64,000 nucleotides of DNA. Source: Shigella phage ESh17. The stretch lies in the sequence record ON528727; one strand, given 5' to 3'. Below, piece after piece: positions 4,290-55,041 of this stretch; the stretch's first letter is position 1, and the number at the start of each line of letters is the position of its first letter. The notes beneath the pieces were generated by a model, which worked only from the letters and a program-made list of their open reading frames with translations, ran no database searches and was not told the DNA's origin. The position numbers and the translations under genes were made by a program.

Positions 4290-4916
4290 ATGTATGAATA
4301 CAAATTTGATGTGAGAGTTGGTTCTAAAATAATCAATTGTCGCGCATTCACGCTTAAAGAATATCTAGAACTTATTACTGCCAAAAATAATGGTTCCGTA
4401 GAAGTAATTGTTAAAAAGCTAATCAAAGACTGCACAAATGCAAAAGATTTAAACCGCCAAGAATCAGAACTATTGTTGATTCATTTATGGGCACATTCTC
4501 TTGGTGAAGTTAATCACGAAAACTCCTGGAAGTGCACCTGTGGAACTGAAATACCAACCCATATAAATCTATTACATACACAAATAGATGCACCAGAAGA
4601 CCTCTGGTATACACTGGGTGACATTAAAATTAAGTTCCATTACCCTAAAATTTTTGATGATAAAAATATAGCCCACATGATAGTATCATGTATAGAAACG
4701 ATTCACGCTAACGGGGAAAGCATTCCAGTTGAAGACTTAAATGAAAAAGAACTGGAAGATTTATATTCTATCATCACAGAGTCAGATATTGTAGCTATAA
4801 AAGATATGCTTTTAAAACCTACTGTTTATTTGGCTGTTCCAATTAAGTGTCCAGAGTGTGGAAAAACCCATGCTCATGTAATAAGAGGACTCAAAGAATT
4901 CTTTGAGCTATTGTAA
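4290..4916 (+). CDS. 26: Baseplate hub subunit gp26
   Basis: 208 aa, T4 gp26 size; CxC...CPECG zinc-binding-like C-terminus; TATAAATA 22 bp upstream. Confidence 0.85.
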
Positions 4917-5314
4917 TGGCAAATATTAATAAGCTTTATTCTGACATTGACCCAGAAATGAAAATGGATTGGGACAAAGACGTTTCTAGATCCCTTGGAT
5001 TAAGGTCAATTAAAAATAGCCTTTTGGGAATTATTACAACCAGAAAAGGGTCAAGGCCATTTGACCCAGAATTTGGATGCGATTTATCTGACCAACTTTT
5101 TGAGAATATGACTCCTCTTACTGCTGACACGGTTGAGCGTAATATCGAAAGCGCGGTAAGAAACTATGAGCCACGTATTGATAAATTATCAGTTAATGTG
5201 ATACCGGTTTATGATGATTATACTCTGATAGTAGAAATACGCTTTTCGGTCATCGATAATCCTGATGATATTGAGCAGATAAAACTGCAACTGGCTTCCA
5301 GTAATAGAGTATAA
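4916..5314 (+). CDS. 25: Baseplate wedge / sheath initiator gp25
   Basis: 132 aa, T4 gp25 size; ATGA-type overlap with gene 26. Confidence 0.85.
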   Translation: MANINKLYSDIDPEMKMDWDKDVSRSLGLRSIKNSLLGIITTRKGSRPFDPEFGCDLSDQLFENMTPLTADTVERNIESAVRNYEPRIDKLSVNVIPVYDDYTLIVEIRFSVIDNPDDIEQIKLQLASSNRV

Positions 5315-44039: not shown

Positions 44040-44088
44040 TGCTTCAGTTTTGTGTGTTATAATCTTAATTAAATTTGAGGAGAAACAC

Positions 44089-44813
44089 ATGAAACTAATC
44101 TTTTTAAGCGGTGTAAAGCGTAGTGGAAAAGATACTACTGCAGATTTTATCATGAATAATTATTCTGCAGTTAAATATCAACTTGCTGGTCCTATTAAAG
44201 ATGCATTAGCTTATGCATGGGGCGTATTTGCAGAAAACACTGACTATCCTTGCTTAACTCGTAAAGAGTTTGAAGGAATTGACTATGATCGTGAGACTAA
44301 TTTAAATCTGACTAAATCAGAAGTAATCACGATTATGGAACAAGCATTTTGCTATCTTAATGGTAAAAGCCCAATTAAGGGTGTGTTTGTTTTTGATGAC
44401 GAAGGACAAGAATCAGTTAATTCCGTAGCATTTAACAAGATTATTGACGTTATAAATAATATTGAAGATCAATGGTCAGTCCGTCGTCTGATGCAAGCCC
44501 TAGGTACGGATTTGATTGTTAATAACTTCGACCGCATGTATTGGGTAAAATTATTTGCTTTAGATTATCTTGATAAATTTAACTCAGGTTATGATTATTA
44601 TATCGTTCCTGATACTCGTCAAGATCATGAAATGGATGCGGCTAGGGCGATGGGTGCTACAGTAATTCATGTAGTTCGTCCTGGTCAAAAATCCAATGAT
44701 ACACATATTACAGAAGCTGGATTGCCAATTCGTGATGGTGATTTAGTAATTACAAACGATGGTTCTCTTGAAGAACTTTTTTCTAAAATTAAAAATACAC
44801 TAAAGGTACTATA

Positions 44814-44814
<1 letters not shown>
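44089..44814 (+). CDS. 1: Deoxynucleoside monophosphate kinase gp1
   Basis: ORF track 254 aa; ATG at 44089 after GAGGAG gives 241 aa (T4 gp1 size); P-loop GVKRSGKDT. Confidence 0.88.
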
Positions 44815-45523
<709 letters not shown>

Positions 45524-45530
<7 letters not shown>

Positions 45531-45553
45531 CGCTGATGAGGTAGTGATACTAT
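45524..45553 (+). promoter_or_regulatory. T4-type early promoter (GTTTAC -35, TGaTACTAT extended -10)
   Basis: GTTTAC at 45524-45529, 18 bp spacer, TACTAT at 45548-45553; drives IP-like gene. Confidence 0.6.
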
Positions 45554-45583
45554 TATCTCATCAAAATTAATTAGGAAAATAAA

Positions 45584-45841
45584 ATGAAAACTTTCAAAGA
45601 GTTTGCTACAAAAACTACTATCACCGAATCTTCCCACGGTATGGAAGTAAAGCTTGGAATGGCTTTAGCTGAAGCTGAGCGTCTTTTCTCTCGTATTAAA
45701 GAACTTGCTGCTGCAGTCGATCCTTCATCTTTTAAAGGAGACCAAACTAAAGTTAAAGCGCTTTTAGCATTATGCTCTGATGCAGGCGAAATCGCTAAGA
45801 ACGGTTCTAAGATGAAGAAACGATTAGAAGATTTAAAATAA
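45584..45841 (+). CDS. Internal (capsid-injected) protein, IPI-like, with capsid targeting sequence
   Basis: 85 aa; N-terminus MKTFKEFATKTTITE matches T4 CTS MKT(Y/F)xEF with I-x-E cleavage motif; own early promoter. Confidence 0.6.
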   Translation: MKTFKEFATKTTITESSHGMEVKLGMALAEAERLFSRIKELAAAVDPSSFKGDQTKVKALLALCSDAGEIAKNGSKMKKRLEDLK

Positions 45842-45860
45842 TTTCACAAAGTTGTTTACA
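45831..45860 (+). repeat. Repeated stop+promoter cassette, copy 2
   Basis: See copy 1. Confidence 0.7.
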
Positions 45861-45883
45861 TAGGGTTTTAGTTGTGATACTAT
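45854..45883 (+). promoter_or_regulatory. T4-type early promoter
   Basis: GTTTAC 45854-45859, TGaTACTAT -10 45878-45883; same module as 45524. Confidence 0.6.
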
Positions 45884-45911
45884 TACCCTATCAACTACTG
45901 AGGAGAATAAA

Positions 45912-46097
45912 ATGAAACGTTGTGAATTAATTCGAAATGTTGCTATTGCAATTTCTGCTTCCGCTTTTAGTTTTTCAATGTTTGTTGGATTTATATGCGG
46001 ATTATTAACTACAGCAGAAAATGTGTTTTCGCTTGTAGTAGCATTTTTAATTGGTTTAATCGCTATCGTTATGGATAAAATTTCTAAAGGTGAATAA
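45912..46097 (+). CDS. Small hydrophobic membrane protein
   Basis: 61 aa ORF, two predicted TM stretches; early promoter upstream. Confidence 0.55.
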   Translation: MKRCELIRNVAIAISASAFSFSMFVGFICGLLTTAENVFSLVVAFLIGLIAIVMDKISKGE

Positions 46098-46508
46098 ATG
46101 AGTATTAACGAATATTATGTTTATGCCGGGGATTATGCAAATCCTTCTCATTTTGAAGGTAATTTAATACCTGATAAAGTTTTTAATACTCCTTTTGAAG
46201 CGTGGAGTTGGATTGAAAGTAAAAATGGATTTTCTTACCGTTATGTTGAAGTAACTGATTGGAGAGGAACTAAATATCCTAAAGACCATTATTACGTAAA
46301 TCCATCTAAGGTAAATTTTCTTTTATTCGCAGGTGATAATTATTATCCTTGCGGTGGATATGATGATTTAATTGCGTATGCTGAAACAGAAGATAAGCTG
46401 CGTGATATCATTAAAGAAAATGAAAATAAACTAGATTATGGTTCCAATCGTTTCGACTGGTGGCAAATCGTAAATGCCCATACTCATGCTATCGTTGATA
46501 GAGGCTGA
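46098..46508 (+). CDS. Hypothetical protein (ORFan)
   Basis: 136 aa ORF, overlapping stop/start with previous gene. Confidence 0.6.
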   Translation: MSINEYYVYAGDYANPSHFEGNLIPDKVFNTPFEAWSWIESKNGFSYRYVEVTDWRGTKYPKDHYYVNPSKVNFLLFAGDNYYPCGGYDDLIAYAETEDKLRDIIKENENKLDYGSNRFDWWQIVNAHTHAIVDRG

Positions 46509-46533
46509 CAATGATTCTTTATGCTAAAGTACT
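46507..46533 (+). repeat. Duplicated gene-start module AATGATTCTTTATGCnAAAGTA, copy 1 (truncated 15-codon ORF)
   Basis: Matches 46963-46989 with 1-2 mismatches; copy 1 reading frame stops after MILYAKVLPYRNDIA. Confidence 0.6.
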
Positions 46534-46582
46534 ACCTTATAGGAATGATATTGCTTAAATTAATATTGAGGTAGCTGAGACT

Positions 46583-46963
46583 ATGAAATTAATTAAATCG
46601 GGTGGAACCAGATGGGTACTACTAACACGTAAGTATGCTATTAAGTTCCCTATCCCCAAGACATGGAAACACTTCGTGCAGGGTATGCTCAGCAATCTTA
46701 CAGAAGGTCAGTGGAAGGGGTATGATAACAAGCACCTATGCCCGATAGCATACTCAAACAGATTTGGTCTCATGGTTGTGATGCACAAAGCAGAGCCAGT
46801 TGAGGATAAGGAGCTTTTTAAATCTGATTTGCAAAAGCTCTATAATGATGTTGATGGTGATGAATGTAGAACGCTTGACCGTGATTTCTTTGAGTATGAT
46901 GCCTTTCCAAAGAACTTTGGCTACTACAAAGGTAGATTGGTCAAGATAGACTACGGAGTGTGA
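46583..46963 (+). CDS. Hypothetical protein (ORFan)
   Basis: 126 aa ORF with RBS GAGGTAG. Confidence 0.6.
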   Translation: MKLIKSGGTRWVLLTRKYAIKFPIPKTWKHFVQGMLSNLTEGQWKGYDNKHLCPIAYSNRFGLMVVMHKAEPVEDKELFKSDLQKLYNDVDGDECRTLDRDFFEYDAFPKNFGYYKGRLVKIDYGV

Positions 46964-46989
46964 TAATGATTCTTTATGCAAAAGTATCA
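46963..46989 (+). repeat. Duplicated gene-start module, copy 2 (start of 97-aa ORF)
   Basis: See copy 1. Confidence 0.6.
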
Positions 46990-47259
46990 TCCATTGAAAA
47001 TGGATATAAATATGATCAAGACGCGGCTAAAGCCTTGATCGATGATTATGGCGTTTTAACGTGTTTTGAAGTTGAAAAGGTTTATGTTGACCGTTCATCT
47101 TCTCAAGTTAAATTAGTGAAGGAAGACCGTAAATTTAATACAGTAAATTTTGATTTCTTTATTGAAACGGAAAAAGGTCCTCTTGAATATGATATTTTCA
47201 AGAATCCTTTGGGTCTTGAATGTATTGAATATACTTACATTAATATGGTGAGCAAATGA
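46966..47259 (+). CDS. Hypothetical protein (ORFan)
   Basis: 97 aa from ATG at 46966 (track starts at GTG 46960); N-terminal module duplicated at 46511. Confidence 0.55.
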   Translation: MILYAKVSSIENGYKYDQDAAKALIDDYGVLTCFEVEKVYVDRSSSQVKLVKEDRKFNTVNFDFFIETEKGPLEYDIFKNPLGLECIEYTYINMVSK

Positions 47260-47771
47260 ATATTTGTTTAGGTACTACAATTCCGCAGGGTTATGTGATT
47301 GATGTAACTACATGGGAAAATGACGGTGACAACTATAAAACCAAAACATTGTTTGGTGTAGAAGAGAATGAAATCTTACAATTCCAATATCTTTTAAAGA
47401 AGTTTAAAAGTAGACATTCTAGCACAAAAGTTGAACGTTATTGCGGTAATGGCTTGTTCAGCGAGCAATCGCTTTTTATCTATGAATACTTGGTTGAAGG
47501 ACTGTTCTCAGACCAGCTTTATCCAGAATTCATTAAAAAGGTCTTTGATATAGAAGTTGACCTTGGTAATAAATCTGAAGAAGATGAAGAACGTGTATTT
47601 GACTTATTCTTTGTGAATGGTAATAAAGTGCTTGAAGGACTTATTAATATTTTAGGCAGTGCTTCTGAATATTATGATTATGATTTTCTGCGCGTAGTTG
47701 AGAGTGTTAAATACTCTTATATAGAAAAAGAAATTGTTTTGCCGACTGTTAAAATGTTTAATTTGCTTTAA
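47256..47771 (+). CDS. Hypothetical protein (ORFan)
   Basis: 171 aa ORF, ATGA overlap with previous. Confidence 0.6.
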   Translation: MNICLGTTIPQGYVIDVTTWENDGDNYKTKTLFGVEENEILQFQYLLKKFKSRHSSTKVERYCGNGLFSEQSLFIYEYLVEGLFSDQLYPEFIKKVFDIEVDLGNKSEEDEERVFDLFFVNGNKVLEGLINILGSASEYYDYDFLRVVESVKYSYIEKEIVLPTVKMFNLL

Positions 47772-47832
47772 GAATTATTTGTTATTATTAACTCATACCG
47801 CACTGATTAATACCCTCTATCATCAAGGGTTC

Positions 47833-47856
47833 TTGCTTGAGAGCCTTTGTTAATAA
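47833..47856 (+). promoter_or_regulatory. Possible middle promoter for tRNA cluster
   Basis: TTGCTTGA MotA-box-like at 47833-47840 with TAATAA 11 bp downstream; weak. Confidence 0.3.
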
Positions 47857-47857
47857 T

Positions 47858-47930
47858 TGGGAATTAGCCAAGTTGGTAAGGCACTGGATTTTGATTCCAG
47901 GATGCAAAGGTTCGAGTCCTTTATTCCCAG
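47858..47930 (+). tRNA. tRNA-Gln (anticodon UUG)
   Basis: Cloverleaf by hand: acceptor TGGGAAT/ATTCCCA, anticodon loop TTTTGAT, T-arm GGTTCGAGTCC. Confidence 0.8.
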
Positions 47931-47931
47931 C

Positions 47932-48018
47932 GCGAGAATGGTCAAATTGGTAAAGGCACAGCACTTAAAATGCTGCGGAATGATTTCCTTGTGGGTTCGA
48001 GTCCCACTTCTCGCACCA
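47932..48018 (+). tRNA. tRNA-Leu (anticodon UAA), class II with long variable arm, encoded CCA
   Basis: Acceptor GCGAGAA/TTCTCGC, anticodon loop CTTAAAA, T-arm GGTTCGAGTCC. Confidence 0.8.
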
Positions 48019-48023
48019 AATTT

Positions 48024-48097
<74 letters not shown>

Positions 48098-48107
48098 ATT
48101 TAATTTA

Positions 48108-48181
48108 CTCCGTGTAGCTCAGTTTGGTAGAGCGCCTGATTTGGGATCAGGAGGTCCAAGGTTCAAATCCTTGTATGGAGA
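48108..48181 (+). tRNA. tRNA-Pro (anticodon UGG)
   Basis: D-arm TAGCTCAGTTTGGTAGAGC, anticodon loop TTTGGGA, T-arm GGTTCAAATCC; acceptor with two G-U pairs. Confidence 0.7.
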
Positions 48182-48183
48182 CT

Positions 48184-48273
48184 GGAGGCGTGGCAGAGTG
48201 GTTTAATGCACCGGTCTTGAAAACCGGCAGTCGCTCCGGCGACTCATAGGTTCAAATCCTATCGCCTCCGCCA
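48184..48273 (+). tRNA. tRNA-Ser (anticodon UGA), class II
   Basis: Acceptor GGAGGCG/CGCCTCC, anticodon loop CTTGAAA, long variable arm, T-arm GGTTCAAATCC. Confidence 0.8.
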
Positions 48274-48279
48274 GTTTTT

Positions 48280-48355
48280 GCTGATTTAGCTCAGTAGGTA
48301 GAGCAACTCACTTGTAATGAGAAGGTCGGCGGTTCGATTCCGTCAATCAGCACCA
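48280..48355 (+). tRNA. tRNA-Thr (anticodon UGU)
   Basis: Acceptor GCTGATT/AATCAGC, anticodon loop CTTGTAA, T-arm GGTTCGATTCC. Confidence 0.8.
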
Positions 48356-48356
48356 A

Positions 48357-48431
48357 GGCCCTGTAGCTGGAAGGTTCAAGCAAGCGACTCATAATCGCCA
48401 GATGGTGGTTCAATTCCACCCAGGGCCACCA
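48357..48431 (+). tRNA. tRNA-Ile (anticodon CAU, presumably lysidine-modified; could be read as Met)
   Basis: Acceptor GGCCCTG/CAGGGCC, anticodon loop CTCATAA, T-arm GGTTCAATTCC. Confidence 0.65.
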
Positions 48432-48443
48432 AATTATGAATTA

Positions 48444-48530
48444 GGGGAGTTATCCCGTAGAGGTAGCGGTGTGGACTGTAAATCCATTGTCATTGCGACT
48501 CGGGTGGTTCGACTCCATCACTCCCCACCA
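48444..48530 (+). tRNA. tRNA-Tyr (anticodon GUA), class II
   Basis: Acceptor GGGGAGT/ACTCCCC, anticodon loop CTGTAAA, long variable arm, T-arm GGTTCGACTCC. Confidence 0.6.
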
Positions 48531-48534
48531 ATTT

Positions 48535-48609
48535 GGATGTGTAGCTCAGTGGTAGAGCAGTTGACTGTTAATCAATTGGTCCATGGTTCGAATCCATGCA
48601 TGTCCGCCA
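48535..48609 (+). tRNA. tRNA-Asn (anticodon GUU)
   Basis: D-arm TAGCTCAGTGGTAGAGC, anticodon loop CTGTTAA, T-arm GGTTCGAATCC. Confidence 0.7.
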
Positions 48610-48723
48610 AATTTGTGACAACTGTCACATTAATATCTACTTGACGCGATTATAAGGGTTGAACTGATCACTCTTCTCTTAATTTCGTGTGAAGACATCT
48701 TGATTGTTGGAGTAGGTATTAAT

Positions 48724-48799
48724 GTGGCCGTAGTTCAGTTGGTAGAACTCGAGATTGTGATTCTCGTAGTCATGGGTTCGACTCCCATCGGTCACCCCA
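48724..48799 (+). tRNA. tRNA-His (anticodon GUG)
   Basis: D-arm TAGTTCAGTTGGTAGAAC, anticodon loop TTGTGAT, T-arm GGTTCGACTCC, discriminator C; no encoded G-1. Confidence 0.65.
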
Positions 48800-48803
48800 A
48801 TTA

Positions 48804-48879
48804 CGGGGCATAGCTCAGAAGGAAGAGCAAGGACCTTCTAAGTCCTAGGTCGTAGGTTCGATCCCTACTGCCTCGACCA
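48804..48879 (+). tRNA. tRNA-Arg (anticodon UCU)
   Basis: Acceptor CGGGGCA/TGCCTCG, anticodon loop CTTCTAA, T-arm GGTTCGATCCC. Confidence 0.8.
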
Positions 48880-48897
48880 ATTATAAGTGAGGAAAAT

Positions 48898-49248
48898 ATG
48901 AAAGGTAATGTTTATTTAGTAGTTCATGATTTAACATTCTATTTTAATCATAATGATACTGTTATTTCTGAACGTGTAATTAATTTACTTTATCAGCATG
49001 CAGATTATGTTTATGTTGAAAATGAATTTGGCCATTGGCAATTTCTCAAAAATCGTTCATTTGGTTTAGATGGTTACGAATACTTTGATCGTAAAGACCT
49101 TTTAGATACAATTCCATTATCTACACAATATCAAAATCATAAGTCTTTACATAAATGCCGGCTAATTCGAAATGCTGAATCTGCGTATGAAGCAATTGAT
49201 TTATGGCGTAAACGCCGTGAACAAATTGATGCTTTAAAAGAATATTAA
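48898..49248 (+). CDS. Hypothetical protein between tRNA cluster and structured RNA locus
   Basis: 116 aa ORF with RBS GAGGAAAAT. Confidence 0.6.
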   Translation: MKGNVYLVVHDLTFYFNHNDTVISERVINLLYQHADYVYVENEFGHWQFLKNRSFGLDGYEYFDRKDLLDTIPLSTQYQNHKSLHKCRLIRNAESAYEAIDLWRKRREQIDALKEY

Positions 49249-49254
49249 GAAACC

Positions 49255-49558
49255 GGGTCGCTACCGGTAAGTCGTCGGACTGATGTTCCCTGAGTAAGGA
49301 ATTGCGTTAATAATCTTTGCGTTTATTGATGCCCTCTTACATCACAGCAGAAACGGCGCACCGAATTATCGATTCGAGGAAATATCTTTGCCGTAAGCCG
49401 AGTAGCGTTTTTGACGGAACGTTCGGATATGGTCGAGATATGGCCTTTTAAAAATATTGAGTAGCGTCAACTGCTTAATAACCGGGTTCGAATCCCGGCG
49501 TTTCGTACAAACACTTGCCTTAGCAGGTGGAACCCCGACAAGGTTGCCGCAAGGCTTA
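49255..49558 (+). ncRNA. GC-rich ORF-free structured RNA locus (candidate T4 rnaC/rnaD-like stable RNAs)
   Basis: About 300 nt without ORF, GC-rich relative to flanks; tRNA-like T-arm CCGGGTTCGAATCCCGG at 49482-49498; ends in strong terminator. Confidence 0.45.
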
Positions 49559-49585
49559 GCCCCAGCCGAAAGGTTGGGGCTTTTT
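49559..49585 (+). terminator. Rho-independent terminator, copy 1
   Basis: GCCCCAGCC-GAAA-GGTTGGGGC hairpin + TTTTT. Confidence 0.7.
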
Positions 49586-49631
49586 AGTATAAATAAGTAT
49601 ATTAAATCTACAAATTAAAACAGGAAATAAG

Positions 49632-50105
49632 ATGAAATCATATACTCAATTTTTAAATGAAGCGGTGTTAAATGAAGCGTCTAGCACCGAAATTCAAGCT
49701 GTCGCAAAAGCAGCCATTGCAGCGGGTAAATATTCCTATAAAGATGCTTCTGATGAATCACGATTCCAATTTGCTCGCGACATGAAAGCAGAAGGATTTA
49801 CGGGGAATGCTGTTAGTATGGCCTGGAAAAGTTTAGTTGCTACTGGCGCTGCTTTTGCAAAGGCTTCGGGTAAACCTGCTCCTAAAGCAGATCCTAAAGT
49901 CACACAAGAGAAAAATATCGTTAAAGGAATTATCTCCAAATATGAAGCTATCCTTAAAGAGCTTTTAGTAATCAAAACTGAAGGCCAAAAGCTAGCTCGT
50001 GCTTATAGTTTCAAAGATAACCCACATGCTCACTCTCTTGAGTATGTTGAAGACATCCAAAAAATTATTAAAGACCGCATTTGGTCTGCTAAACAAATCA
50101 AATAA
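49632..50105 (+). CDS. Internal (capsid-injected) protein with capsid targeting sequence
   Basis: 157 aa; N-terminus MKSYTQFLNEA with L-N-E cleavage motif; flanked by near-identical terminators. Confidence 0.6.
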   Translation: MKSYTQFLNEAVLNEASSTEIQAVAKAAIAAGKYSYKDASDESRFQFARDMKAEGFTGNAVSMAWKSLVATGAAFAKASGKPAPKADPKVTQEKNIVKGIISKYEAILKELLVIKTEGQKLARAYSFKDNPHAHSLEYVEDIQKIIKDRIWSAKQIK

Positions 50106-50113
50106 CATTCTTA

Positions 50114-50140
50114 GCCCTAGCCGAAAGGTTGGGGCTTTTT
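50114..50140 (+). terminator. Rho-independent terminator, copy 2 (near-identical to 49559-49585)
   Basis: GCCCTAGCC-GAAA-GGTTGGGGC hairpin + TTTTT. Confidence 0.7.
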
Positions 50141-50273
50141 GGTATCTAGGCCTTTCCAGGCCTCTCTAGACATCATTTAGTTTCTACCCTTTATAATATA
50201 TTATCCTATCCTTTGATTTCCCCTCCCTGCCCTAGAATTCCCCAAAACTTTTTAAAAATTTTTTCACAAAACG

Positions 50274-50303
50274 GTTTACATCCTTGTCCTTCCATGGTAC
50301 TAT
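50274..50303 (+). promoter_or_regulatory. T4-type early promoter
   Basis: GTTTAC 50274-50279, TGgTACTAT -10 50298-50303. Confidence 0.6.
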
Positions 50304-50346
50304 ACAACTATCAACTACTGATACAGAAAACAACTTGGAGAATGAA

Positions 50347-50610
50347 ATGGATAATTACGGTGAGCTGTTCAACTTCTTTATGAAATGTGTTTCAGAAGAT
50401 TTCGGTCGTACAGTGAATGATATTAAAGTTATCGGTCCTGATCATCCGTTGTTTGAAACTTACGCAGTAATGGGTAATGAAGATGGTCAGTGGTATACTG
50501 TAAAGGTTGTGATTAACATGTTCACTGCTGAAAGTTATGTTAAACTGTCTTCTAAAGTTTATCATGATAATGATGAAATTGCTGAAGAATATTTCAATAA
50601 TATGAAATAA
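50347..50610 (+). CDS. Hypothetical acidic protein
   Basis: Track ORF starts at 50284 inside the promoter; ATG at 50347 after GGAG gives 87 aa. Confidence 0.55.
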   Translation: MDNYGELFNFFMKCVSEDFGRTVNDIKVIGPDHPLFETYAVMGNEDGQWYTVKVVINMFTAESYVKLSSKVYHDNDEIAEEYFNNMK

Positions 50611-53504: not shown

Positions 53505-54473
<969 letters not shown>

Positions 54474-54567: not shown

Positions 54568-55041
54568 ATGAAAACATATCAAGAATTTATTACTGAAGCA
54601 GCTATTAATTCTCAAATTATTGCTGAATCTTTTACTGATCTTTTGAAATTTAAAAAAGGTCAAAAAATCACTGCTGTATTGGATGATGGTACAGAAGTTG
54701 AGATGGATGTACAGGGATATAATTATGCAGTAGATGGAAAACTGTATAATAAATCTCATGCTAAATTTGATTCATTTGACGACTTTGTTAATACAGTTGA
54801 AGATGAAAAAACTCGTAGATCCATTGCAACTGGCGACGCTAAGGTTCTTATGGCACATGGCCATGAACGCATCCGCGCTAAACAGAATAAAATGGGCGAA
54901 GATAATTTTGCATTAGTTGGTTATCAATCTGGTAAACAAACTTATGGCTATCAACGTACTGCTACCATGTATAACAAAAATGGTAAAATTGCCTTTGTGA
55001 ATAGTAAAGGTTCTATTCAGTACGTTAAATCGTTCAAATAA
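54568..55041 (+). CDS. Internal (capsid-injected) protein, IPIII/IPII-like
   Basis: 157 aa; N-terminus MKTYQEFITEAAINSQIIAE (CTS with I-T-E and I-A-E motifs); early promoter upstream; adjacent to e as ipIII in T4. Confidence 0.65.
   Translation: MKTYQEFITEAAINSQIIAESFTDLLKFKKGQKITAVLDDGTEVEMDVQGYNYAVDGKLYNKSHAKFDSFDDFVNTVEDEKTRRSIATGDAKVLMAHGHERIRAKQNKMGEDNFALVGYQSGKQTYGYQRTATMYNKNGKIAFVNSKGSIQYVKSFK

Follow-up and report, generated by a model that had tools for sequence, protein, structure and literature searches.

What is encoded between a conserved anti-defence gene and the transfer RNA (tRNA) cluster of a T4-like phage, and does anything there deserve attention as a new effector against host defences? 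The question is raised by a 64,000-nucleotide (nt) stretch of DNA (the window, analysed at its full length) from Shigella phage ESh17, record ON528727, whose source is a T4-like phage of the genus Tequatrovirus. Six open reading frames (ORFs) sit on the + strand of this window between 57B (45056-45511) and the gene for tRNA-Gln (47858), in what an earlier reading made without database searches, referred to below as the sequence-only reading, had described as a hypervariable island like the ip1 locus of T-even phages. The coordinates of the six ORFs were borne out, and the island and its left border are composed as follows.

45056..45511, + strand: 57B, coding for Acb1, a phosphodiesterase acting against the cyclic-oligonucleotide-based antiphage signalling system (CBASS); conserved left border, Pfam PF23474 Acb1 (E 2.6e-60), 100% identity to T4 57B
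45584..45841, + strand: ip5 (ORF1), internal head protein Ip5, 85 amino acids (aa), phrog_3499
45912..46097, + strand: trna.4, hydrophobic protein of 61 aa (grand average of hydropathy 1.22), 100% identity to T4 Trna.4, phrog_1692
46098..46508, + strand: trna.3, acidic protein of 136 aa, 99.3% identity to T4 Trna.3, in 764 phage records
46583..46963, + strand: ORF4, 126 aa, predicted minimal protein-kinase-like fold ('mini-kinase')
46966..47259, + strand: trna.2, intact copy, 97 aa from its ATG, 91.4% identity to T4 Trna.2, in 798 phage records
47256..47771, + strand: ORF6, acidic protein of 171 aa, orthologue of RB32ORF135c, 98% identity to the RB32 and PaulHMueller orthologues, phrog_2290

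Taken together with the roles proposed below for Ip5 and ORF4, the region is in all likelihood the ipI-to-trna.2 early-gene block of a mosaic Tequatrovirus. The identification of the locus rests on identities of 91-100% and on a colinear comparison with T4, RB32, PaulHMueller (Bas45), T2 and KarlGJung (Bas37): the gene order from 57B to trna.4 is colinear with that of T4, RB32, T2 and Bas37, ip5 occupies the polymorphic ip locus between 57B and trna.4, and trna.4, trna.3 and trna.2 are identified as orthologues of the T4 genes by sequence identity plus their T4 order. This is the ip1 locus of T-even phages and it is hypervariable, as had been claimed, its contents differing in T4, RB32, T2, Bas37 and PaulHMueller. 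Even among close relatives the ip slot varies: the window contains Ip5 alone, RB32 contains Ip5, Ip9 and Ip7, T2 (AP018813; 5547-6433 of the compared stretch) contains Ip5 and Ip7 and is devoid of trna.3, and Bas37 (4554-5121 of the compared stretch) contains Ip5 plus a 77-aa McrBC inhibitor. The exact arrangement of the window (Ip5 alone, ORF4 and the 171-aa ORF) was present in 0 of 50,697 phage records, among which the closest match, PaulHMueller, covers 91% of the island; the surrounding 24 kb finds best matches with 95-97% coverage and 97-99% identity. This phage, therefore, combines known parts in a new mosaic.

All six ORFs were placed in PHROG families (E 1e-28 to 1e-68), while neither Pfam nor NCBIfam returned a match for any of them and sequence searches of the PDB gave nothing significant, only a weak alignment of the ORF4 profile to TTK. 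The statement that the six ORFs have no recognisable domains is, hence, correct for Pfam and NCBIfam, and incorrect with regard to PHROGs and to the kinase-like fold of ORF4. Five of them had also been called ORFans, which is the wrong word, because trna.4, trna.3 and trna.2 are T4 genes and ORF6, of the RB32ORF135c type (none in T4, present in T2), occurs in 573 phage records, some from T4-like phages of Klebsiella and Aeromonas; many T4-like phages carry this RB32-type gene upstream of the tRNA cluster, and Trna.3, Trna.2 and ORF6 each occur in 573-798 records. Four of the five non-ip ORFs are, then, conserved genes (three of them in T4 itself) and none has an assigned function, so that the sequence-only reading, which would have fallen had all of the ORFs been conserved T4 genes with functions, was overtaken in part. 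Transposon insertions in the Bas37 orthologues of trna.4, trna.3 and trna.2 are neutral on each host compared, and T4 Trna.2 has been co-purified with the DRT1 defence protein, which was not followed up there (PMC13275509). A T4 late-promoter motif, TATAAATA, lies within trna.2 at 47005-47012 (+), about 250 nt upstream of the 171-aa ORF.

Most of this is ordinary: accounts of the ip1 locus and of Ip5 go back to 1994, and the majority of the supposed ORFans are T4 genes. What is new here is a lead to a host on which Ip5 may matter, the finding that ORF4 is a very small protein of kinase fold carried by a mobile module, and a third leader-bearing ORF. We propose tentatively that ORF4 belongs to a family of half-kinases, about 120 aa long and spread across phages, that has gone undescribed and, as a more modest second reading, that Ip5 inhibits a defence of uropathogenic Escherichia coli (UPEC) CFT073, for example c5421.

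The AlphaFold2 model of ORF4, built on a 29-sequence alignment, has a mean predicted local distance difference test (pLDDT) of 89 and a predicted template modelling score of 0.79, and its elements follow the order beta1-beta2-beta3-alphaC-beta4-beta5-helix-short helix-beta-beta, which is the fold of a kinase N-lobe. The best 50 Foldseek matches are all kinases, with Legionella Lpg2603 at the top (E 5.8e-4), and a protein-kinase-like fold can be assigned to ORF4 with confidence from this model. A profile search of 1.84 billion representative proteins retrieved 1016 members at E <= 1e-3, of which 427 reach E <= 1e-10. The best 150 matches are, with few exceptions, 110-135 aa long, and the family comprises more than 1000 clusters at 50% identity from T4-like, T5-like, N4-like, Felix-like and jumbo phages. 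Conservation was counted over 76 members that are 29-49% identical to ORF4. G7, R10, K21, E41 and D123 are invariant (76/76), position 106 is acidic throughout (Asp or Glu), Lys occupies position 108 in 57 members, position 111 is Asn in 49 and Ser in 26, and 62 of the 76 end exactly three residues past D123, the DFG-like Asp. The catalytic residues appear in the order expected for a kinase (beta3 Lys, alphaC Glu, D-x4-N loop, DFG-like Asp), and the family keeps the glycine loop, the D-x-K-x-x-N catalytic loop and the D-Y-G magnesium-binding motif, its profile aligning weakly (E ~0.07) but consistently to the HSDLKPANF…LIDFG region of TTK/Mps1. A kinase C-lobe is missing, the family containing neither an activation segment nor helices alphaF to alphaI.

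On the basis of this model, ORF4 would act as an early-expressed, ATP-binding phosphotransferase directed at a host or defence component, and it would probably need a partner or dimerisation in place of the missing C-lobe; we infer from this an ATP-dependent phosphotransferase that works through a partner or self-association. Other minimal kinases are larger: OspG and NleH (~170-200 aa), Bud32, RIO and the archaeal RNA kinase Ark1 (173 aa) all keep a reduced C-lobe, whereas ORF4, with 126 aa, ends three residues past the DFG-like Asp and has no significant sequence similarity to the minimal kinases. Among phage kinases the only well-studied precedent in terms of function is T7 gp0.7/JSS1_004, likewise encoded by a phage and, as ORF4 would be, expressed early; these are promiscuous kinases with a broad anti-defence action through phosphorylation and, unlike ORF4, they combine a full-length kinase domain with a C-terminal domain that binds DNA. 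No homology between ORF4 and T7 gp0.7 was detected (hhalign probability 0.09%), and a split kinase composed of ORF4 and Trna.2 was rejected, since the phi G17 and A7_1 homologues precede unrelated genes and T4 Trna.2 occurs without ORF4. The BASEL kinase survey in the JSS1_004 work recovered T7-kinase homologues in four Autographiviridae phages, plus P1vir Doc, and nothing else; the Bas45 copy, which is identical to ORF4, is not among the kinases of that survey. Some jumbo-phage homologues are annotated as Ser/Thr kinases in GenBank, and a literature search on the ORF4 family or on kinases of ~120 aa returned nothing relevant.

Several points weigh against an enzymatic ORF4. It has no significant match to a kinase family (none in Pfam or NCBIfam; E 0.07-0.1 in PDB sequence searches), about one third of the family has Ser instead of Asn, and the whole C-lobe is absent. 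In kinases, the C-lobe normally carries the substrate-binding elements and the hydrophobic core. A non-catalytic nucleotide-binding role is a serious alternative, and ORF4 could be no enzyme at all, being instead a nucleotide-binding pseudokinase, a decoy or sponge, or a functionless N-terminal remnant of a full kinase, which we hold to be somewhat improbable. The missing C-lobe and activation segment, together with Ser in place of N111 in 26 of the 76 members, speak for such a role, as does the existence of a longer homologue, 267 aa, annotated as a Ser/Thr kinase in phage Kc263. Against a remnant, the short form is the rule (same end in 62/76; 110-135 aa in nearly all of the best 150 matches) and the C-terminal extension of the Kc263 protein contains no Pfam domain; against a non-catalytic function in general, the invariance of K21, E41 and D123 together with an acidic residue at 106 exceeds what nucleotide binding usually needs. 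If the ORF4 family were active as a phosphotransferase, its members would be the smallest protein-kinase-like enzymes known and an overlooked early phage effector, they would redefine the minimum size of the kinase fold, and they would constitute a second class of phage kinases, unrelated to T7 gp0.7.

The position of ORF4 in the island is explained by the second of the two duplications that the sequence-only reading had noticed, both of which are real: a 69-nt repeat with an exact 31-nt core, described further below, and a 31-nt repeat of which one copy is a 15-codon stub. This latter repeat (46501-46531 and 46956-46986, 87% identical) doubles the start ATG ATT CTT TAT GC of trna.2 and contains an exact 15-mer, for which we estimate a chance expectation of ~0.004. 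The features that it delimits are:

46511..46558, + strand: truncated duplicate of the trna.2 start, MILYAKVLPYRNDIA, ending in a stop after 15 codons; left scar of the insertion
46526..46971, + strand: horizontally acquired module composed of a 57-nt leader and ORF4, absent from T4 and RB32 at an otherwise colinear site

The empty site, which confirms this repeat, is found in T4 and RB32, where the trna.3 stop is directly followed by the trna.2 start (…GATAGAGGTTGATGATGATTCTTTATGCGAAAGTATCATCC…). In the window, ~446 bp are inserted some 15-20 nt into trna.2, and the same holds for the five other Tequatrovirus genomes checked for the insert, PaulHMueller, vB_Eco_EL, PhiZZ30, G10400 and ECP52; trna.2 is intact because a second copy of the junction between the trna.3 stop and the trna.2 start stands on the right. 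At this right-hand junction the microhomology TGAnnATGAtT is common to the insertion and the T4 site. Over a span reaching from 57 nt before the ORF4 start to 8 nt past its stop, the insert is 74% identical at the DNA level to Gamaleyavirus phi G17, and the G+C content at third codon positions is 0.45 in ORF4 vs 0.15-0.27 in the neighbouring genes. ORF4 is missing from T4, RB32 and T2, and it is 100% identical to bas45_0262 of PaulHMueller/Bas45; its homologues occur in 101 phage records, only nine of them at 95% identity or more, and are carried by Vequintavirinae, Gamaleyavirus, Felix-like, Asteriusvirus jumbo, Aeromonas, Erwinia and Ralstonia phages. The second duplication was left behind when the ORF4 module inserted, and these data suggest that ORF4 was acquired horizontally from an unrelated phage.

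The first ORF of the island had been presented as a possible uncharacterised factor, but it is a known entity: the protein is 100% identical to Ip5 of RB32, RB15 and Bas37, T2 also carries Ip5, and Ip5 received its name in 1994, the records of RB32, T2 and other phages annotating it as internal head protein. It is found at 99% identity or more in 177 phage records and at 95-99% in 72 more, and a paralogue of ~48% identity lies beside the lysozyme gene in another 228 records. There are only five Ip5 clusters in a collection of 5.8 billion proteins, which confines Ip5 to this phage group. The claim that its start matches a T4-type capsid-targeting leader and gp21 cleavage motif proved right, and the leader is defined as:

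45584..45628, + strand: capsid-targeting leader of Ip5, MKTFKEFATKTTITE, predicted gp21 cut after Glu15

According to the rules established for IPIII, ten leader residues are enough for packaging and positions 4 and 7 direct targeting, whereas the gp21 prohead protease cuts after (L/I)-x-E (PMC9026906). Ip5 begins with MKTFKEF, with the aromatic Phe4 and Phe7 at these positions, and contains I13-T14-E15, the same ITE that is present in T4 IPI; its leader, MKTFKEFATKT----TITE, aligns to the T4 IPI leader MKTFKEFTSTTTPVSTITE. By BLASTP the likeness to T4 IPI is confined to residues 1-22, with a leader match of 14/26 that includes ITE. Only 3 of the 479 Met-starts in the window fit even a loose form of the leader pattern MKT(Y/F)(Q/K)EF. 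ITE/SSHG (the slash marks the predicted cut) is invariant across the five Ip5 clusters, one variant leader having only 10 residues (MQTYQTFITE), and mature Ip5 is nearly invariant, with 94% mean column identity over the five clusters. The predicted mature protein has 70 aa, 7.5 kDa and an isoelectric point of 9.2, and the model of Ip5 shows a two-helix hairpin preceded by a disordered leader (pLDDT 71). The capsid-targeting leader and the I-T-E gp21 site suggest that Ip5 is very probably packaged and injected. The model is of medium confidence and a helical hairpin is uninformative on the target; a Foldseek search retrieved only generic helical hairpins (E > 0.4), with no IPI* structure among the PDB matches. 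A literature search gave no virion proteomics or cleavage data for Ip5.

An early-type promoter of its own would drive ip5, with probable additional transcription by late read-through; early-type promoters are located at 45525 and 45855, and the late-promoter motif TATAAATA occurs at 44451 (in gene 1), upstream of 57A-57B-ip5. The 15-residue leader would direct the protein into the prohead core, gp21 would cut it after I13-T14-E15, and the basic 70-aa helical-hairpin product would enter the host with the DNA and block one specific defence. Ip1, Ip2 and Ip3 each inhibit a different GmrSD (PMC12373910), and the leader-bearing bas37_0260 (77 aa), directly beside ip5 in Bas37, inhibits McrBC (HIDEN-SEQ preprint, 2025), so all four internal proteins of known function are specific type IV restriction inhibitors and by this precedent the target of Ip5 would most likely be a modification-dependent (type IV) nuclease. 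The mature sequence of Bas37_0260 is unrelated to Ip5 (phrog_8111 vs phrog_3499) and its gene is missing from the window. The closest parallel is T4 IPI*, the injected inhibitor of CT596 GmrSD, which shares with Ip5 the locus between 57B and trna.4, the leader MKTFKEF...ITE, the flanking promoter cassette and a similar processed size (76 vs 70 aa); unlike IPI*, Ip5 shows no IPI*-type sequence or fold past the leader and does not do the same job, as T2, with Ip5, is restricted by CT596GmrSD. T2 is restricted by CT596GmrSD and UTI89_C2960 (PMC4437046), and also by the ECOR21 and ECOR17 GmrSD enzymes (PMC12373910); since it has Ip5 and Ip7 and yet is restricted, Ip5 inhibits none of the four GmrSD enzymes tested, and its target is other than those of CT596, UTI89, ECOR21 and ECOR17.

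A lead to that target comes from Extended Data Table 7 of the HIDEN-SEQ preprint, in which the abundance of Bas37 mutants on K-12 BW25113 was compared with that on clinical isolates (CFT073, CFE299, CFE303 and CFE331 were considered here; CFE336 was left out). Insertions in bas37_0261, which is Ip5, were depleted about 4-fold on CFT073 (log2 fold change (log2FC) -2.09, adjusted p 0.00000, 17 TA sites) and showed log2FC values of -0.01, -0.01 and -0.13 on CFE299, CFE303 and CFE331; the gene is non-essential on K-12, where 18 of 18 TA sites were hit. UPEC CFT073 encodes a GmrSD homologue, c5421 (PMC4437046). The authors of the preprint make no comment on bas37_0261. A target of Ip5, thus, appears to be present in CFT073, although the depletion is a lead and not a result. 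The effect is modest and comes from a single pooled transposon-sequencing (Tn-seq) comparison in a preprint supplement, Ip5 has no phenotype on four other hosts, and insertions in Bas37 57B were also depleted on CFT073 (log2FC -1.56, adjusted p 0.003), which makes a local or polar effect possible. In the same data two Bas37 hypothetical genes, bas37_0239 and bas37_0240, have log2FC values of -3.62 and -6.49 on CFT073 and no depletion on CFE299 and CFE331; the gene order places them between the tRNA cluster and nudE/lysozyme e, and a corresponding block exists in the window.

Ip5 could instead have no specific host target and be a basic capsid filler that neutralises charge or condenses DNA, the variability of the locus reflecting neutral drift of a dispensable slot. 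Mature Ip5 is basic and is predicted to be a simple helical hairpin, the gene is dispensable on K-12 and without effect on CFE299, CFE303 and CFE331, and T2 and T6 are restricted by every GmrSD tested. We nevertheless regard this explanation as unlikely: the depletion on CFT073 is host-specific, the four internal proteins of known function all inhibit type IV restriction specifically, and the 94% mean column identity of the mature protein argues for selection on its sequence. If Ip5 does inhibit a CFT073 defence, the internal proteins with a known target would number five. Every one of those investigated to date has brought to light a new type IV restriction specificity, and Ip5 is among the commonest internal-protein alleles (~250 records at 95% identity or more, T2 included), for which the Tn-seq data point to CFT073 as a candidate host.

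The first of the two duplications corresponds to a stop and promoter cassette that is present twice in the locus:

45496..45564, + strand: cassette copy 1, containing the last codons of 57B, TAA, the promoter and a hairpin (TGATGAG/CTCATCA) round the -10 (from repeat and promoter scan)
45826..45894, + strand: cassette copy 2, containing the last codons of ip5, TAA, the same promoter and a hairpin (ATAGGGT/ACCCTAT) (from repeat and promoter scan)

These 69-nt direct repeats are 81% identical and share the exact 31-nt core GATTTAAAATAATTTCACAAAGTTGTTTACA, which covers the stop codon and a TTTACA-17-TACTAT promoter with a TG extension; we estimate that an exact 31-mer is expected by chance ~1e-12 times in 3 kb. 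Each cassette begins with the end of the prior gene (…DLK and stop), followed by TTTCACAAAGTTGTTTACA and, 17 nt on, by TACTAT preceded by TG; the hairpin spans the -10 element, and a near-identical ribosome-binding region and ATGAAA come next. The same cassette precedes ipI and trna.4 in T4 and an ip gene in PaulHMueller, and in RB32 it stands before each of Ip5, Ip9, Ip7 and trna.4, the RB32 annotation reading 'flanked by 43 bp direct repeat'. Because T4, RB32 and PaulHMueller share it at the same positions, the cassette is an ancestral recombination scaffold and not a recent event. The idea of recent cassette shuffling, consequently, does not hold; of the two repeats, only the second marks a discrete event, the insertion of the ORF4 module. 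The cassettes that bracket each ip-slot gene, together with the shared leader codons, would provide the homology for swaps of ip alleles between co-infecting phages.

The hairpin occurs in two versions, both of which pair (45530-45562; 45860-45892), and the RB32 spacer between Ip9 and Ip7 (2615-2697 of the compared stretch) is a hybrid of the two in which pairing is broken. This hybrid indicates that crossovers occur inside the cassette, within the GTGATACTATTA core. A functional RNA hairpin was rejected, as the broken pairing of the RB32 spacer points to recombination rather than structural selection. A third copy of the cassette core lies outside the ip locus, at 50262-50280 (+), where TTTCACAAAACGGTTTACA is followed by GGTACTAT just upstream of the ORF at 50284-50610.

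That the island consists of six lineage-specific ORFans created by recent cassette shuffling in this phage is very improbable: although the exact combination is absent from the 50,697 phage records (best match 91% coverage) and ORF4 is found in only 9 Tequatrovirus records, three of the ORFs are T4 genes, each ORF occurs in ~100 to 800 phage records and the cassette occupies the same positions in T4, RB32 and PaulHMueller, so this view is refuted in its strong form and holds only in the sense of a mosaic locus.

Two further ORFs of the window have a leader of the same kind:

49632-50105, + strand: unannotated leader-bearing ORF, 157 aa, phrog_2280 ('unknown function')
54568-55041, + strand: second annotated internal protein, 157 aa, MKTYQEFITE/AA, phrog_3155 ('internal virion protein')

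The protein encoded at 49632-50105 starts with MKSYTQFLNEAVLNE/ASS and its homologues with MKTYNEFLNESVLTE/AS, MKTYNEFLMTE/AS, MKSYAEFLTE/QS and MKFKEFLAE/AS; the leader contains an L-x-E gp21 site with an invariant Glu15 and, judged by these sequences, is a bona fide capsid-targeting leader. The late-promoter motif TATAAATA is located at 49588-49595, 37 nt upstream of this ORF. It is present in 511 phage records, 25 of the 25 listed calling the product hypothetical or a generic 'phage' protein, and its Bas37 orthologue, bas37_0244, is neutral on the hosts compared. This third locus probably encodes an internal (injected) protein that has been overlooked, suggesting that the catalogue of packaged T-even proteins is incomplete. 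It is also debatable whether the ip island is, as had been proposed, the best place in the window to look for an anti-defence factor, this ORF being a less explored candidate. The ORF at 54568-55041 lies directly downstream of lysozyme e (53979-54473), in an ipII/ipIII-type locus.

The remaining neighbours of the ip locus are:

upstream of the ip locus: gp3
44050-44814, upstream of the ip locus: gp1, dNMP kinase
44814-45056, upstream of the ip locus: 57A
47858-48879: tRNA cluster of 11 genes (Gln, Leu, Gly, Pro, Ser, Thr, Met/Ile-CAU, Tyr, Asn, His, Arg)

An Rfam scan of 44800-50500 recovered the 11 tRNAs and nothing else. The cluster is devoid of the homing-endonuclease gene segB, while that of T4 contains 8 tRNAs with segB inside it. 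On the other side, the proven anti-defence gene 57B/Acb1 directly adjoins the start of the ip island.

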